Below, one piece after another: positions 22,150-53,123 of a stretch of DNA of 64,000 bases. The position numbers were made by a program, and so were the translations under genes. Positions within the stretch are counted from its first letter, which is position 1, and every line of letters starts with the position of its first letter. This DNA is from a virus: positions 56,485 to 120,484 of the IMG/VR virus record IMGVR_UViG_3300026097_000013; one strand, written 5' to 3'. The notes below the pieces were generated by a model. It ran no database searches. It was not told the origin of the DNA and was given only the letters and a program-made list of their open reading frames with translations.

Positions 22150-22590
22150 TTATATAGCAGTTAGAACAATCTGATCGCCTGACGAATCGTCGTATTGTGA
22201 CATTTCCCAAGTATAACGATTGCCGCTAAAGTCTGTTGCTACACGCTTTGTAATTTTAGCAATTGCAACTTCTGCACTTCCGTCGTTGAGTGTGCCCAGC
22301 ATTTGAATTTCGCCATTTGCATTTGGTGTAGTTTCTACTAGTGTGCCAGTCTCAAAGTCTGCTGAATCTGGACCTGTAATACTTTCGCCATCTACAAAAC
22401 TATCATTTGCTTCACTTAGTACAACAAATGTTTTTGCACCACGTTGCTTGATAATCATGTAGTCTGTTGCTAGTGCGTCACCGAAGTAGCCGCTTAGTCT
22501 AATACCAGCGTTCTCGTCGCCGGGTGTGTTTGTGCCAAATGTTCTAATTACATCAACACCGTTTACATCTTTTCTTAATGGACGTCCCAT
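22150..22590 (-). CDS. Hypothetical late (probable virion) protein
   Basis: 146 aa, AGGAG RBS, own late promoter and structured leader; lies directly downstream of the capsid gene. Confidence 0.55.
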   Translation of the reverse strand: MGRPLRKDVNGVDVIRTFGTNTPGDENAGIRLSGYFGDALATDYMIIKQRGAKTFVVLSEANDSFVDGESITGPDSADFETGTLVETTPNANGEIQMLGTLNDGSAEVAIAKITKRVATDFSGNRYTWEMSQYDDSSGDQIVLTAI

Positions 22591-22610
22591 AATGATTTCT
22601 CCTTTGTTTA

Positions 22611-22680
22611 ATCATTGCCGTTCTAGGGTCTACGCGGCGAGTACCGCATAAGTCCTACTCGAAGGTAGGCTCCTATATGA
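22611..22680 (-). promoter_or_regulatory. Structured 5' leader with two hairpins and alternative pairing
   Basis: Minus strand CCUAC-CUUCGA-GUAGG and UAUGCGG-UACUCG-CCGCGUA. The U.G wobble forms only on the sense strand. Loop UACUCG is complementary to CGAGUA in hairpin 1. Confidence 0.55.
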
Positions 22681-35699: not shown

Positions 35700-36230
35700 T
35701 TATTTGTTTCTGTTAGTTTTGAAAGACGGTTTAGTTGCCGTCTTTTTCTTTGGTGTATTGATATTTTTTTGCAAAGCAGTTAGCAATCTCTTCTTTTCTT
35801 TCATACTAAGCTGGTCAAGCTGACCTTTAACTTGACTATAAACTGTTTTAACTTTTTGATTGTCAACATCATCTTGAGGTTTAGCACCTTTACCTGCCAT
35901 TGCTTCTTTAGACTTATCTAAAAAGATAGTGTTTAGTCTATCTTTGTTCATAGGCTTTGTAGTATCTATGTTTGACGTATCAACATTCTTTCCATCTAGA
36001 AAATCGATAACATCTTGAGTAGTTATATCTTTAGGTGATTTATTTTGAGTGCCAATATAAGTCATAAACTGCTGAGAAAGATTGTTTGCTGTTGCAGCAA
36101 GATTTGTTTTACCACGTAAATTAGCAGCAGTGTCTTTAGCACCAAGAGAACCGAGGGCTTTAGCACCAATCTTCATTGCTGATTTTTTTAATCCACTTAC
36201 AGGTGCTTCTGTTACTTCGTTGATTTTCAT
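35700..36230 (-). CDS. Basic hypothetical late protein, possible internal head protein
   Basis: 176 aa, Lys-rich, starts MKINEVTEA; ATAAATA late promoter at 36254-60 and AAGGA RBS. Confidence 0.5.
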   Translation of the reverse strand: MKINEVTEAPVSGLKKSAMKIGAKALGSLGAKDTAANLRGKTNLAATANNLSQQFMTYIGTQNKSPKDITTQDVIDFLDGKNVDTSNIDTTKPMNKDRLNTIFLDKSKEAMAGKGAKPQDDVDNQKVKTVYSQVKGQLDQLSMKEKKRLLTALQKNINTPKKKTATKPSFKTNRNK

Positions 36231-36269
36231 TTAGATATATCCTTAATACAAAGTATTTATTTTCGAATC

Positions 36270-36800
36270 TATTTAATATCTACTTCGTAGATATTTGTTT
36301 TCGCTAATCGCTCAAACTAAACACTTCGTTTGTTGATAGAAGTAATTAACAAGATATAGATGCATTATGACGAATGTCATAATGTTTAAGTTTCATGTAG
36401 ATCGTTTCAGTCAGACGGAACCTGTTACGGTTCCATCAAACTCGAAAATGTGCTTCATGTGAGTCATGCCACAGCCGAGACTTGGAAGTAGGTAATTTTC
36501 TGCTACACAATGGGCTCTGACCTTTCCCAACCTACGTCGACATCATAATAATATGTTTTTGTAAGCTAACAAGTTAATGTTAGTATACAGAATACATATT
36601 ACTACTACCTCTCGCTTCGTTCCTATTGCTAAAGAGTTTTTATGTGTAATGTGCAGTTTTTCGACAGCCAACATTCCATCTATACCAATCAAACATCCTA
36701 CTACCGGATGCCGCTCAGTATGTTACGTGTGCTCCTATACGGTAGCTTTTTCCACAGCGGTATTTCTAAACTGGCCCGCCAACCTTATGTGTTGGATTGT
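36270..36800 (-). ncRNA. Candidate large structured ncRNA, family unassigned
   Basis: About 530 nt without a credible ORF. Contains many perfect hairpins (36275-95, 36363-84, 36417-34, 36549-601, 36694-710, 36779-95), an 8-bp long-range pair (36355-62 with 36677-84) and a pseudoknot-type pair of helices at 36482-36535. Confidence 0.55.
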
Positions 36801-37234
36801 TTTGCCTGGATGTGATGTTCTAGCAATGCCTGTTTGAGTTTGTCAGACCCGCCTACTCTAACATTGATAATACCATTGTAGTATTCATCTGTTTCAAGTA
36901 CTCTACGATCAAACTGTTCTCGTGCCTCTATGTAGGACATTTCGCCTCTACCTTTACATAGGTATAATATTTCTCTTGTAAACTTGTCTTCGCCTAGTGC
37001 TGCTACATCTGCGTTTAGCCTGTCACTGGATCCCCAGTAAGTGCGCCAATCGCTTTCTTTATAGCCTCGTCTTTTGTTTTTCTTGCCTTTTAGAGGTGGC
37101 TTAGTAGTTTTAAATTTTGCTAGTTTCTTGCCTATGTATTTTTGGCCTGTAGTGGTATTGGTGATAAGATAAACAAAGCCTTCATACTCGTCTGGTATTG
37201 TGTCAATTGTTTCACCTCGGTAAGTCCACTGCAT
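36785..37234 (-). CDS. Minimal GIY-YIG endonuclease (EndoII/Seg-like catalytic domain only)
   Basis: EGFVYLITN..TGQKYIGKK, YWGSS, F.REIL, E..EQF, YYNGII. The start is probably the MQW ATG at 37234. No C-terminal DNA-binding domain. Confidence 0.8.
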   Translation of the reverse strand: MQWTYRGETIDTIPDEYEGFVYLITNTTTGQKYIGKKLAKFKTTKPPLKGKKNKRRGYKESDWRTYWGSSDRLNADVAALGEDKFTREILYLCKGRGEMSYIEAREQFDRRVLETDEYYNGIINVRVGGSDKLKQALLEHHIQAKQSNT

Positions 37235-37255
37235 GAACTTACTTACCAATGCCTA

Positions 37256-37456
37256 TTATTTGCCTTCTTCGTTTTTGGCATGATGATGTTGATATTTTAT
37301 TTCATCGCCTCGTTGTTTTGCTAGTTGCCTAATTAGTCTAATAGATTTTTGTACAGCGTAGTATTTGCGAACACTTTGTTTTTGTTCCCACGCTTCGTGT
37401 GCCTTAAAATATTCTAAATATGCCTGGACCATTAGGTCATGTGTGTCGTCATTCAT
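37256..37456 (-). CDS. Small hypothetical protein
   Basis: 66-aa helical ORF packed between gp46 and the GIY-YIG gene. Confidence 0.5.
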   Translation of the reverse strand: MNDDTHDLMVQAYLEYFKAHEAWEQKQSVRKYYAVQKSIRLIRQLAKQRGDEIKYQHHHAKNEEGK

Positions 37457-37458
37457 AT

Positions 37459-39228
37459 CTATTCAACAAAGTCGATATCATTTGCATAACTAGTAAAGCC
37501 ATTTTCTTTTACAACTTTAAGAACATTATTAACTCTTCCGACTAGTTCATCTTTGTGTGAGATAAGATAGATATTTTTATCTCTTTCTCGAGTCATCTTT
37601 TTAAGAATACCTAGTGAATTTTCTACACCTGCTGTGTCCATACCACTATCAATCAGCTCGTCGATAAACAACAAGTTGATATTTTGATACAAGCTCTCCC
37701 AAACATCACGGAATGCAAAGCTTAGTCCTAAGATAAGTCTGTTACGCTCGCCTCGACTCAAGTTATCAAAGTCTAAGTCTTGTCCTAGCTGAGTGATTTC
37801 AACGTTCAAATCGTTTTGGAACACAACTTGATGAGGCAATCCGATCTTGTCAAGGTAGTATGTAAGTCTGTTGTTAAGGTATGCTAAGTTCTGATCAATA
37901 ATCTTCTTGCGAATGAAACTATCTTTGTTTGTTAGCAACTTTAACAAAAACTCTTGATGTTCTTTGTAGCTTGTAAGTTCATTTACAATGCTCCAATCGA
38001 CTTTTTGGATAGCTGACTCGCTTAATTCTGTAATCTGTGCAGCATACGGATCAGTTTCAACAACTTTATCTTCTAATGTCTTCTTTAGATTGTCTACATT
38101 ACTTCTGTGTTCATATGCTTCTTTAGCATTGTCATAGAATGTTGTAGGCTTGCTGTTGATTTCACCAATTTTTTCAAGTGCTTTCATTACATCAGTAAGT
38201 TTGCCTGCAACTTCTGTTTGATATGCTAGTGCATCAGCAAGTTCTTTGCCCTTACGTTCTGCAATTTCAGCTTTTTTGTCTGCATGCAGTTCTTGACCAC
38301 ATGTGTAACAGGTTGCATCTTCAAGATCTACAATATCTTTCTTTGCTTTGGTTACACTTTTGTCTGCACGTTGTAGAGCAGGCTCAAGTGTGCTTAGTTC
38401 TTTCTTAAGAGCTAGGATAGCATTGTTGTGTTCAGTCCAGTTTGCTAATTTTTCATGTGCATCAAGTTCAGCTTCGATATCTAGTTTTTCTAATTCTTCA
38501 ATAGCATTTGATAAATTTTCTTGGTCTTGTTTATTCTTAGCAATCCAAGCACGTTGAGTACGCTTTAGACCTTCAATACTGCCTTCAATCTTCTCATTAG
38601 CAGTTTGAATAGCGTTAATCTTTAGTGTTTCTTCTGTAATAGCATCTTTGGTCTGACGAACTTGTTCTTTAAGTGTATCGGCTTTCTCTGAAAGGATAGT
38701 AATACCTAACAACTGCTCGATAATTTGTCTTTGATCATTAACACGCATACTTAAGAACGGTTCTGTGTAGGTATTCAGTGCAACGATGTGTTTAAACATG
38801 TCATGACTCATACCTAGCAATGTGTTTACGTCGTCTTGCGTTTGTCTACTGTCGCCTTGTGACTCGTCTACTAGTTTTTCTTGATCATTCATGTAGAATT
38901 TAAAGATATTAGGTGAGCGTCCACGCTCAATACGGTATTCGTTACTATCTTTTTCAAAAGTAAGCGTAACTAACATGCCTTTTGAGTTAGTTTTATTGAT
39001 CAAGTTATTGCGTTTGATGTTTGTAAGTGCTTGACCATATAATGCATAGGACAAAGCGTTGATAATAGTAGTTTTACCTGTTCCGTTGCGTGATCCGCTG
39101 TCATCTCCACCTTGATCTAAGTTCTCACCTAGTACAAGTGTTAGCTGTTCATGGTCAAAGTCTACTGCTTGAGTCTGATTGCCCACACTCATGAAGTTTT
39201 TTACGGTTAAAGCCTTGATCTTAATCAT
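37459..39228 (-). CDS. gp46: Recombination endonuclease ATPase subunit (SbcC/Rad50-like)
   Basis: Walker A NGTGKTT, coiled coil with CYTC zinc hook, LSRGE signature, LLFIDE Walker B, ISH. Confidence 0.95.
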   Translation of the reverse strand: MIKIKALTVKNFMSVGNQTQAVDFDHEQLTLVLGENLDQGGDDSGSRNGTGKTTIINALSYALYGQALTNIKRNNLINKTNSKGMLVTLTFEKDSNEYRIERGRSPNIFKFYMNDQEKLVDESQGDSRQTQDDVNTLLGMSHDMFKHIVALNTYTEPFLSMRVNDQRQIIEQLLGITILSEKADTLKEQVRQTKDAITEETLKINAIQTANEKIEGSIEGLKRTQRAWIAKNKQDQENLSNAIEELEKLDIEAELDAHEKLANWTEHNNAILALKKELSTLEPALQRADKSVTKAKKDIVDLEDATCYTCGQELHADKKAEIAERKGKELADALAYQTEVAGKLTDVMKALEKIGEINSKPTTFYDNAKEAYEHRSNVDNLKKTLEDKVVETDPYAAQITELSESAIQKVDWSIVNELTSYKEHQEFLLKLLTNKDSFIRKKIIDQNLAYLNNRLTYYLDKIGLPHQVVFQNDLNVEITQLGQDLDFDNLSRGERNRLILGLSFAFRDVWESLYQNINLLFIDELIDSGMDTAGVENSLGILKKMTRERDKNIYLISHKDELVGRVNNVLKVVKENGFTSYANDIDFVE

Positions 39229-39229
39229 A

Positions 39230-40246
39230 TTACGATTCTAATCCATTATAAATTTGCAACAACATGCTTTTATCATAGTTGTTAGTGTCTAGTTCTGCAA
39301 TTTCGTTGCTGACAATTTGATCTACACTTTCAAATTGTGCAATATCAAGTTCTGTTGACATCTCTTCAAGATGTTTTTGTGGAATAAGGGTAATTTCACG
39401 ACATTTATACTCTCTTATAAACGTTTCTTTAACAAAACTTGCTTCTTCGTAGCTGATAGGCAAGTCTAGTGTTACTCGCAAGTACATTTTACTTTTTATA
39501 ATAGTATCTGCGTTGTCAATTAGTTCACTTAGTTTAATTGTACGGTACTTAGGACAATCTGGCCAGTTGATATACTCTGGTTCTAGGTTATTTTCTTTAT
39601 CAAGTATCATCATACCGCGATCATCATCGCCTACATCGGCATAATTGTGCGGAAACGCATTACCAATGTAGTGAATAGCACCTTGTTTTTGTCTTTTGTG
39701 GAAGTGTCCACTGAATACATAATCTTGATGCTTAAAGTGTTCAGGTTTTAAGTCACCGTGATCGGGCATACGCACTAGAGCGTTCATATAAAAGCTAGGA
39801 AGTTCAAAGTGTCCAAACAAATACTTTGTTTTGATACTACTCATCTTCTTCCACTCGTCGCCAACCAGCCACGGTACTAGTGCAACGTCATCTTCAATAA
39901 GAATCTCGTCTACAAATGTAATACCTGGAATGTGTTTTGCAAATGCAGTTGAGTTGACGTCACGTTTGTCTTTATAATACAAATCGTGGTTACCATCAAA
40001 GAAATAAAACTTCTCAAACGCTTTGCCTAGCTTCTCCATACTACGAATTGTTGCATCCATAGTAGTTAAGTTTAACGAATTACGATTGTGATGCCAATCG
40101 CCGCAGAAGATTCCGGTTTCGCAACCATGTTCTTTTGCAGTTTCAATATACCAATCAATAAATTCTTCGCAATCTTCGTTATGTACACGACTATTGCCTT
40201 TAAGTCCAAAATGAATGTCTGTAAAGACTGCTGCTTTTTTAAACAA
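39230..40246 (-). CDS. gp47: Recombination endonuclease nuclease subunit (SbcD/Mre11-like)
   Basis: Metallophosphoesterase motifs TDIHFG, GDWHH, GNHD, GHFH, YIGN. Confidence 0.95.
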   Translation of the reverse strand: MFKKAAVFTDIHFGLKGNSRVHNEDCEEFIDWYIETAKEHGCETGIFCGDWHHNRNSLNLTTMDATIRSMEKLGKAFEKFYFFDGNHDLYYKDKRDVNSTAFAKHIPGITFVDEILIEDDVALVPWLVGDEWKKMSSIKTKYLFGHFELPSFYMNALVRMPDHGDLKPEHFKHQDYVFSGHFHKRQKQGAIHYIGNAFPHNYADVGDDDRGMMILDKENNLEPEYINWPDCPKYRTIKLSELIDNADTIIKSKMYLRVTLDLPISYEEASFVKETFIREYKCREITLIPQKHLEEMSTELDIAQFESVDQIVSNEIAELDTNNYDKSMLLQIYNGLES

Positions 40247-52600: not shown

Positions 52601-53123
52601 GTATAAAATATTGTTTGGCACAAAGGCAGCAGAAGACTTGCAGGTTAAATTTAAAATTGTTAGAAACAAAAACTTAGTTATAAATGATAATGAATTAAAA
52701 GCAGATATCATAACTGCTATTGAAAAATTCTTTGCAATTGAAAACTGGGACTTTGGCGAAACATTTTACTTCCAAGAATTGAGTGCATACATACAAAACG
52801 ATCTAGCACCAAAACTACAAAGTGTAGTAATTGTTCCTAGAAAAGGCACACAGGCTTTTGGTAGTTTATTTGAAATTAAATCAGAAGCAGATGAAATTTT
52901 CCTCAGTGGCGCAACGGTATCAGATATTGAAATTATTGATGAAATCACAGCAACAGAACTTCAAGCATCAGGCGATGTTATTACAAGTGTAACCACAGCA
53001 GTTACATCAGGTATATCTAGTGCGCCAGCAGCATCTACATATTCTTCTTCAACAAGTAATACATCGACTAGTACAACAACTAACACAACAAATAATACAA
53101 GTAGCGGAGGCTATAGTTACTAA
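49605..53123 (+). CDS. gp6: Baseplate wedge subunit gp6-like
   Basis: DFDNLR..MINYL, LIDMIAF, ENFLETAERRESILRLARMLSYNPKR, NRLITAEDY; Ser/Thr-rich tail. Confidence 0.85.
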   Translation: MSASDRQSRLLVTEDWKRIYQTFRNADFQSYDFDNLRRTMINYLRQNYPEDFNDYIESSEYLALIDMIAFLGQNLSFRIDLNARENFLETAERRESILRLARMLSYNPKRNQAANGLLKLETIKTNEVITDSAGRSLAGVVIKWNDQTNRNYLEQFIRILNAALPVNNQIGSPLKTENIDGVQTQKYRFNATNTGSAIFPFSKLIEGVSSRFEVVSTDIQGDKIKEEPPVPGTSPAFLFRDDGQGAGSNNTGFFMHFRQGRLDNGTFSIASPTPNQIVNIDAENINDTDVWVYNIDTNGIETTPWTRLDSLEGSNIIYNSLFDNIRNVYNVTTRVGDRINLNFSDGVFGNLPSGNFKIYYRTSQNTNMVITPGAMGQVSITIPYQTKTGQIAELTLGLRLKYTVSNGSPTESNTSIRQNAPATYYTQNRLITAEDYNLGPLSISQDVVKTKSVNRISSGISKYFDLKDVTGKYSNTNLFADDGILYNEYFETRTDFKFSNQRDIEGILYNVVEPILGLSTVNNFYLANFPKISVTDLNATWNRTTVSTNRSTGTLKEVDGSNYKLGSFTTNSLRLIQADTLLKFLPPEGNYFLEDGTLTTDSSAFGARDYKWVKVVSVIGDGSGETDVNDISPVAINDNIPTGSQLVQIIPKYSKTLVNDLKVQLIDQMFAFRDFALRFDPEVSQWKLITGQNVNTINNFSTGKAGDATGQALDSSWILYFKTDGTKYTITHRNLRYIFESANDIRFFFDSSDKIYDSKTGQIIRDKIDILSINRRLDNNQPFTQNFTWNISDAYRDSEGYTDTRKIQVRFFDLNDDGVYDDPEIFTTLVRPTEDPKTKLVFQKRYVTSDGVEDFKYYDNSDNTIIVVQNESEITPSNPGWVEGQVFYLIDEGVFKTLNISRNNKTINTNWKAFTGRDKLKFQYVHVADSNYRIDPAASNIIDTYILSKNYDTEIRKWITGGRPTKPFPPSSDQIFREYGDSINSIKSISDEVVYHPVKYKILFGTKAAEDLQVKFKIVRNKNLVINDNELKADIITAIEKFFAIENWDFGETFYFQELSAYIQNDLAPKLQSVVIVPRKGTQAFGSLFEIKSEADEIFLSGATVSDIEIIDEITATELQASGDVITSVTTAVTSGISSAPAASTYSSSTSNTSTSTTTNTTNNTSSGGYSY

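Follow-up and report, generated by a model that had tools for sequence, protein, structure and literature searches.

Few large, highly conserved RNAs with pseudoknots are known, and those described in the past proved to be either ribozymes or the RNA half of a programmable enzyme; HEARO, for example, was later recognised as the guide RNA of IscB. Two RNAs carried by phages and prophages, GOLLD (RF01998) and ROOL (RF03087), are non-coding and of unknown function, are several hundred nucleotides long, and combine many helices and pseudoknots with long invariant unpaired stretches. Here we describe an RNA that shares these properties, the twin-box RNA, in a 64,000-nucleotide stretch of viral DNA (positions 56,485 to 120,484 of IMG/VR record IMGVR_UViG_3300026097_000013; hereafter, the window). 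The element is ~523 nt long and runs from 36796 to 36274 on the minus strand, immediately behind the gene for a small Seg-type GIY-YIG nuclease. It carries two identical unpaired words, and we know of no described RNA class in which such boxes mutate in parallel rather than complementarily. The family is abundant in marine viromes, where an exact 19-mer of the RNA occurs in at least 119 IMG/VR viral contigs and ~600 stretches encode a relative of the nuclease; the twin-box RNA is nonetheless missing from RNA catalogues and cultured phages.

A covarying RNA in a long non-coding gap

An earlier note, made from the letters of the window alone, had drawn attention to a long non-coding gap in otherwise gene-dense DNA and had proposed a large structured RNA there. 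The stretch free of open reading frames (ORFs) between the nuclease stop codon (36785) and the start of the next gene (36230) is indeed the longest in the window between real genes, and its G+C content reaches 45-49% at 36400-36549 and 36650-36799, compared with a window mean of 36.8%. Relatives were collected by matching a nuclease peptide pattern to viral contigs. Of ~600 matching stretches, 597 encode a relative of the nuclease, and 80 loci were compared. DNA similarity among these 80 loci takes in the end of gp46, the nuclease and the whole gap and stops at ~36250-36300, and no reading frame within the gap is conserved among them. The possibility that the gap is a decayed C-terminal domain of the nuclease was rejected, since stop codons occur in all three frames, no ORF is conserved and homologs of the nuclease are equally short. 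In an alignment of 49 sequences, blocks of 90-97% identity alternate with variable, indel-rich stretches.

Helices were derived from covariation among 91 distinct sequences, and the resulting fold (92 pairs in 16 helices, pseudoknots included) was tested on 49 distinct sequences. In the tested fold 95.1% of alignment cells are paired, as opposed to 35-45% when the 3' partners are slid. Changes on both sides were observed in 50 pairs (16-22 when slid), a value reached by 0 of 500 shuffles. RNAalifold, applied independently, shows compensatory changes in 26 of its 67 predicted pairs. The many G-U pairs identify the sense strand as the minus strand of the window, which is also the strand of the nuclease and of every gene around this locus; all coordinates below refer to it unless stated otherwise. 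Because the first helix lies in the end codons of the nuclease gene and a terminal hairpin comes last, the RNA is taken to extend over ~523 nt, from 36796 to 36274. No covarying helix was found 5' of 36796, and the structure does not extend further into the ORF. The gap encodes a real non-coding RNA, of which both fold and strand are established.

The twin-box RNA is an uncatalogued family. Rfam 15 gave no relevant match at E<=10 in 35500-37800, no match at E<=1 in five divergent loci of the RNA, and no twin-box RNA match at gathering score in a scan of the whole window. RNase P, group I and group II introns, tmRNA, GOLLD, ROOL, HEARO and T-box were among the families covered. The scan that the earlier note had recommended thus returned no family, and the likeness it had seen to the RNase P CR-I segment is not borne out by any Rfam model, RNase P included. 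In the literature, the invariant word of the RNA occurs in no paper and a link of this kind between GIY-YIG proteins and guide RNAs in none, with a 2023 survey of viral structured RNAs lying outside this comparison.

Four metatranscriptome studies (marine, marsh and salt-marsh samples) yielded contigs that cover both nuclease and RNA, several of them spanning the junction between the two. These RNA-library contigs are assemblies that may contain DNA, and they show presence and continuity only. They leave the flanking genes uncovered, which is uninformative, as the flanks are unconserved and expression levels cannot be read from contigs. Sites resembling promoters show no excess in this region (6, with 3.9 +/- 1.8 expected from shuffled sequence). 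The earlier note's proposal of an independent large phage RNA transcribed with the upstream genes is supported by the strong covariation, by the absence of an Rfam model and, as weak evidence, by the junction-bridging contigs.

Two unpaired boxes that change in parallel

Two unpaired copies of the word ACAUGAA, box 1 (36454-36460) and box 2 (36392-36398), lie 52-62 nt apart, one on each side of a conserved hairpin, H9. Across the 91 distinct RNAs compared, the two boxes agree at word positions 1, 2, 3 and 5 with only 2 exceptions, the variants being AUAAU, AUGAU, GUGAA, AGGAA, AUGAG and AUAAA. Positions -2 and -1 likewise vary in parallel (GUAUGAA, GCAUGAA), and 6 of the 7 positions in the word vary. 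A tree was computed from the alignment columns outside the boxes; on it, 10 changes fall in box 1 and 10 in box 2, with only 11 changes of their joint state, and among independent pairs all 8 contrasts go in the same direction. Divergent members follow the same rule, with AGAAA in both boxes of one type (L120) and an unrelated 10-mer, AUCAUCAAGU, present exactly twice in another (L113).

A partner for the boxes was sought within the RNA and around it. Inside the RNA, a 6-mer complement to the boxes was present in 0 of 89 sequences and column covariation revealed none either; no complement was found at a fixed place in the flanks. This suggests an external partner. No inverted or direct repeat of the box word occurs elsewhere in the 120-kb source record, and no DNA target matching the words as guides was found in the flanks or in that record. 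ARAGORN found no tRNA or tmRNA in the window or the 120-kb record, and there are no tRNA genes in five related records of 116-236 kb (G001-G005), which makes a phage-encoded tRNA partner unlikely. Pairing of the boxes with the start of the nuclease gene was considered and rejected: the nuclease's own start is the only real gene start in the 120 kb with UUCAUG, but its context is free to vary among RNAs of a single box type and ignores box changes. The boxes are also not start codons of mini-ORFs, which the AUA, AGG and AGA variants and downstream indels exclude. No nuclease residue tracks the state of the boxes, a weak argument given that such tracking is also absent from nucleases that do use guides. 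Most simply, the two boxes would both base-pair with a single outside sequence, one that is not the same in every phage lineage.

Architecture of the RNA, the nuclease and their setting

The fold begins within the nuclease gene. The 5' strand of helix H1, CCAACA (36790-36795), lies in codons 150-153 beside the stop codon and pairs with 36668-36673 (6 bp, 100% paired, 3 compensatory), and the RNA therefore overlaps the last four nuclease codons. The earlier note had correctly placed the nuclease stop codon within the RNA, but the 5-bp hairpin it drew there (36779-95) gives way to H1, since covariation pairs 36790-95 with 36668-73 instead. This 3' strand of H1 sits in the loop of hairpin Hf (36663-36680; 36676-80 with 36663-67, 5 bp, 99% paired, 3 compensatory), creating a pseudoknot that closes the 5' domain. 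Helix Hd (36682-36721; 36715-21 with 36682-88, 7 bp, 99% paired, 3 compensatory, in 12-17 of the 49 sequences) encloses a variable hairpin, of which short and long forms are seen in the alignment. The covariation test further places in this domain the helices GGCGG/CCGCU (36776-80 with 36756-60) and GUG/CAC (36753-55 with 36727-29), and a hairpin at 36731-46 in which 5 of 5 pairs are compensatory.

Helix H6 (36643-36647 with 36505-36509; 5 bp, 100% paired, 5/5 compensatory) joins the 5' and central domains and closes the latter. Within it, hairpin H7 (36609-36636; 3 compensatory pairs) presents a near-invariant 12-nt loop, A.UAGGAACGAA, and is followed by a peripheral hairpin of variable length (36546-36604; identity 0.15-0.36, gaps up to 71%). 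This is the extended stem that the earlier note had reported at 36549-601. Its closing pair covaries (UA 31, CG 13, AU 2), whereas the remainder ranges from 0 to 120 nt in relatives, and RNA-library contigs of relatives show short replacements there. The invariant single-stranded 19-mer GGGAAAGGUCAGAGCCCAU (36510-36528; identity 0.89-0.97) is unchanged even where the adjacent nuclease drops to 56% amino-acid identity. Beside it lies H8, GUAGGU/ACCUAC (36530-35 with 36488-93; 99-100% paired, 2 compensatory pairs), stacked beneath GUCG/CGGC (36538-41 with 36474-77; 99-100% paired, never varying on both sides). Both helices cross H6, forming a second pseudoknot. Thus, one half of the pseudoknot topology given by the earlier note covaries; in the other half, UUGGGA/UUCCAA, changes break pairing and are never compensated, and its 8-bp long-range pair (36355-62 with 36677-84) occurs in 1 of 91 relatives and is attributed to chance.

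The 3' domain consists of H9, three more hairpins and the two boxes. H9 (36414-36437; 9 bp, 99.5% paired, 1 compensatory pair) covaries and lengthens to 9 bp a hairpin that had been noted at 36417-34; the GA and UCUGA flanking it are (nearly) invariant, and a K-turn-like arrangement might be imagined at this place. Next come a hairpin CAUUAUGAC/GUCAUAAUG (36363-36384; 9/9 pairs compensatory) and a hairpin GUUUGAGC-loop-GCGAAAAC with a symmetric GA/GA internal loop (36297-36317; 4 compensatory pairs). The last, a hairpin with a GNA-type loop (36275-36295; 9/9 compensatory), varies in sequence while its stem is kept, and is likely the 3' end of the RNA. Two of these, at 36275-95 and 36363-84, had been recognised as hairpins in the earlier note, and both covary. 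The RNA contains three copies of CGAAG: one in the H7 loop (36613-36622), one in AAACGAAGUG (36316-36327) and one in the loop of the terminal hairpin (36283-36287). Many contigs (L008, L010, L013, L044, L052, L053 and others) end 128-146 nt past the nuclease stop, and contigs L083, L096, L129, L141 and L144 start at most ~90 nt before the 19-mer. The assemblies thus break inside the RNA, around its variable hairpin, which fits many co-existing, recombining strains.

The nuclease gene (36785-37234) matches PF19835 SegE_GIY-YIG in Pfam (E 7e-35) and phrog_447 in PHROG (E 6e-39). Two starts are candidates: ATG at 37234, giving 149 amino acids, and TTG at 37249, which gives the 154 amino acids of the mechanical call (36785-37249). 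The ATG is probably the real start, because alignment with relatives begins only at residue 6, residues 1-5 being unconserved. The leader before it (37235-37262) is conserved in relatives as TAGGCA-NN-GGTAAGTA-N4-5-ATG; the conserved unit begins here, ~12-27 nt upstream of the ATG, and stops at the terminal hairpin of the RNA. In the 80 relatives the ORF is unbroken, at 153-156 amino acids. Among 87 distinct genes, the regions of the catalytic motifs are 0.96-1.0 conserved (amino-acid conservation 0.9-1.0) while third codon positions vary, which indicates purifying selection; the freedom of third positions declines over the final 15 codons. The Pfam match spans residues 8-128 of 154, relatives are 146-156 amino acids long, and Pfam recognises no separate DNA-binding domain in the ~149-residue protein, longer forms not having been searched for.

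Homologs of the nuclease with 44-70% identity occur at other loci in cyanophages, in Methylophilales phage Melnitz, and in Sinorhizobium and other phages; that of Melnitz has 146 amino acids, is 70% identical and lies at a different locus. The family (~148 amino acids) is present in 459 cultured phage records, mainly of T4-like cyanophages. Judged from these sequences, the nuclease is an intact, free-standing Seg-type gene of a short family that appears to move between unrelated phage lineages. Its mean p-distance among relatives (0.21) is close to those of the RNA (0.24) and gp46 (0.24), and, being as diverged as its neighbours, it is an old, selected resident rather than a sporadic or recent invader. 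Pairwise distances of RNA and nuclease correlate moderately (Spearman coefficient 0.47), and those of each with gp46 less (0.31-0.32). The nuclease thus sits in a recombining region as a long-standing resident.

Among contigs with room upstream, the nuclease lies directly upstream of the RNA in 104 of 106, with 56-98% amino-acid identity. Five records of 120-236 kb each hold one copy of the RNA, and no second or paralogous copy with other words was found in the records examined. No sequence similar to the RNA was detected in any GenBank or cultured phage record, and nhmmer found none behind the Melnitz homolog. Five contigs of two types (L113 and an L120 group of four) carry a divergent yet complete RNA behind other ORFs. 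In the L120 group (L120:1700-1897 on the minus strand, and L202-L204), the 5' helix of the RNA overlaps a 65-aa ORF with the motif WGIPWPPPKGWRKELL; a 165-aa ORF upstream of these nuclease-less RNAs has no match in Pfam, PHROG or the ESM Atlas. The L113 contig has a gene for an HNH endonuclease ~1.5-1.9 kb upstream of its 19-mer. Because the nuclease occurs without the RNA in 459 cultured records and the RNA stands behind other genes in five contigs, an obligate pair of nuclease and guide is unlikely, and the earlier note's alternative of an RNA that partners or guides the GIY-YIG domain is not supported, though within this clade, where the two adjoin, it keeps a small probability. Across 185,579 prokaryote genomes the 19-mer is absent apart from one match in a Lachnoclostridium metagenome-assembled genome, which was dismissed as a clue to the host: the rest of the RNA is missing there and the match is due to chance.

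The source record is 120 kb long with a completeness estimate of only 33%, which points to a jumbo phage, and the carriers of the RNA are uncultured marine jumbo T4-like phages. Upstream of the nuclease lie genes for a gp47-like SbcD (39230-40246) and a gp46-like SbcC (37459-39228), with a 66-aa ORF between the latter and the nuclease. The closest cultured gp46 genes belong to PA5oct-type jumbo phages (50% amino-acid identity), and in PA5oct convergent structural genes follow directly after gp46, with neither nuclease nor gap. The next gene downstream, outside the RNA, is a 176-aa ORF of a fast-evolving family (35700-36230), preceded by a T4-late-type ATAAATA box (36254-60) and an AAGGA Shine-Dalgarno sequence (36240-44). 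In most relatives, ORFs of 157-466 amino acids start immediately 3' of the RNA behind a T4-late-type TAAATA box. They have an N-terminus of the MKINEVTE-AP type in common and then diverge completely, 39 of 97 being still recognisable as homologs by that N-terminus. This leader resembles the capsid-targeting leader of T4 internal proteins and, by analogy, would suggest a hypervariable locus of injected proteins.

Elsewhere in the window, RF02980 (freshwater-2 RNA), a known family, matches at 22588-22670 on the minus strand (54.6 bits; gathering score 49.9), and an ORF of >3626 amino acids on the plus strand (53123-64000), probably a giant fibre or structural protein, extends past the window end. 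No tRNA gene was found in the six large records of this jumbo-phage clade, which is unusual at such a phage size.

Readings of the RNA and comparison with known systems

On balance, we lean towards an autonomous, trans-acting RNA whose boxes read external nucleic acid. The conserved core would be a scaffold, and the working surface would be the two identical unpaired words of 7-10 nt flanking the conserved hairpin. These words would base-pair with two copies of one external sequence, in host RNA or DNA or elsewhere in the phage, and the nuclease would be a long-resident neighbour using the same transcript rather than the RNA's effector. The base-pairing action of the boxes, the external partner and the independence from the nuclease are all points that we infer. 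Several observations weigh against this reading. RNA and nuclease are adjacent in nearly every contig of this clade, the first helix of the RNA is built from the last codons of the nuclease, and the age of the nuclease and its divergence, similar to that of its neighbours, would also fit a functional pair. No partner of the boxes was found, base-pairing being deduced solely from their programmability, and a dimeric protein may instead read both boxes. Evidence for expression comes from assembled RNA-library contigs, which possibly contain DNA and give no transcript ends.

Four other explanations can be set against an autonomous RNA. The fold could be a cis-acting 3' untranslated region controlling expression of the nuclease or stability of its mRNA; for example, ribosomes ending the ORF would have to melt H1, making translation and folding mutually exclusive. 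The position of the H1 5' strand in codons 150-153 beside the stop, the lower third-position freedom in the last 15 codons and the contigs that span ORF and RNA agree with this. However, 520 nt with invariant single strands of 19-35 nt and several pseudoknots go far beyond the needs of such a region, homologous nuclease genes manage without the RNA, the RNA also occurs behind other genes, and there is no match between the boxes and the region where the nuclease starts, whose context is free within one box type; we regard this explanation as unlikely. A similarly small chance is given to an RNA-assisted or RNA-guided nuclease, in which the RNA would bind the catalytic-domain-only GIY-YIG protein and the twin words would select the target, possibly an inverted repeat read on both strands, or a pair of direct repeats, so as to make a double-strand break, parallel to TnpB and its omega RNA. 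The same-strand adjacency in 104 of 106 contigs with the RNA overlapping the 3' end of the ORF, a protein in which no DNA-binding domain is recognised, and boxes that behave as programmable guides all speak for it. Against it stand the 459 cultured phage records that contain the nuclease family and nothing similar to the RNA, the RNAs found without a nuclease, the failure to find the word repeated, inverted or direct, at any other place in the 120-kb record or complemented in the flanks, and, as a weak argument, the absence of any nuclease residue that follows the box state.

CsrA dimers bridge two sites, and on this model the boxes might each be a half-site of a protein dimer that binds RNA (or DNA), with the RNA as sponge or scaffold. 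Two identical unpaired words 52-62 nt apart around a hairpin would suit such a protein, as would the failure to find a nucleic-acid partner, but variation at 6 of 7 positions and the unrelated 10-mer in L113 are easy for base-pairing and hard for protein specificity, and no candidate protein is linked to the RNA. We therefore hold half-sites to be quite improbable. Least probable of all is a divergent known ribozyme, be it a group I-like intron remnant, an RNase P-like RNA or a self-processing ribozyme. The context of a phage GIY-YIG gene, the two pseudoknots with long invariant single strands and the loose likeness of the 19-mer to RNase P CR-I recall one. Yet no Rfam model matches at E<=10, no gene is interrupted and the flanks are separate, variable genes, the would-be P7 and P3' strands lie 20 nt apart, and the RNA-library contigs show no joint at the boxes.

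The parallel-box signature offers a direct experimental handle on the binding partner of the RNA. Should the twin-box RNA prove unrelated to the nuclease, it is still a new class of phage RNA with a testable function. It is doubtful that it is a new kind of programmable RNA whose words would hold or mark two copies of a target for an effector, possibly the GIY-YIG nuclease; the targets might then be two strands or sites of DNA, or two host RNA molecules. If this were true, GIY-YIG nucleases would gain their first RNA-directed system, or phages a new counter-measure based on RNA.

The likenesses to RNase P, GOLLD and ROOL amount to no more than analogy. Unlike GOLLD and ROOL, which lie in tRNA clusters, the twin-box RNA adjoins a nuclease gene; it matches neither model, has twin boxes, and occurs only in uncultured marine jumbo T4-like phages. 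RNase P RNA was rejected as an identity, the likeness being a loose one of a single 19-mer with no RNase P model scoring. A group I intron was likewise rejected, since the RNA does not split a host gene into exons and is flanked by separate genes, which are not the same from one relative to another. The H6/H8 pseudoknot exists, but 20 invariant nucleotides separate the strands that a group I P3-P7 core would require, and no Rfam group I model matches.

In the omega RNA of TnpB and the HEARO RNA of IscB, as here, a large structured RNA shares its strand with a small nuclease gene and overlaps the 3' end of that gene, and the short variable words of the twin-box RNA look programmable. The nuclease here, however, is of GIY-YIG type, not RuvC/HNH, and the locus has no IS200/605 ends. 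The nuclease is not always accompanied by the RNA, being common without it (the cultured records, including Melnitz), and the RNA occurs without the nuclease. The variable words are moreover internal and duplicated, whereas omega RNA and HEARO have a single guide at one end.

The nuclease itself is closest to the free-standing Seg-type GIY-YIG homing endonuclease cassettes of T4-like phages, such as SegB beside tRNA genes. It shares with them a free-standing PF19835 GIY-YIG domain, close relatives at other loci in unrelated phages and a position adjoining a highly conserved RNA gene, and a homing-endonuclease role, with cleavage and homing, is a candidate on sequence grounds. It differs from them in its short length (~149 amino acids) with no recognisable DNA-binding domain, and in being fixed rather than sporadic within this clade (104 of 106 contigs) and as diverged as its neighbours.

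The bridge RNAs of IS110 and the C/D box sRNAs of archaea resemble the twin-box RNA in having two separate short unpaired stretches on one RNA, which in those systems read nucleic acid; bridge RNAs further require a match between those parts of their two loops by which the shared core is read. The twin-box RNA has no recombinase, fibrillarin or Nop5 in its context and no Rfam match. Unlike in either of these systems, the entire 7-10-nt word is the same in both of its sites.

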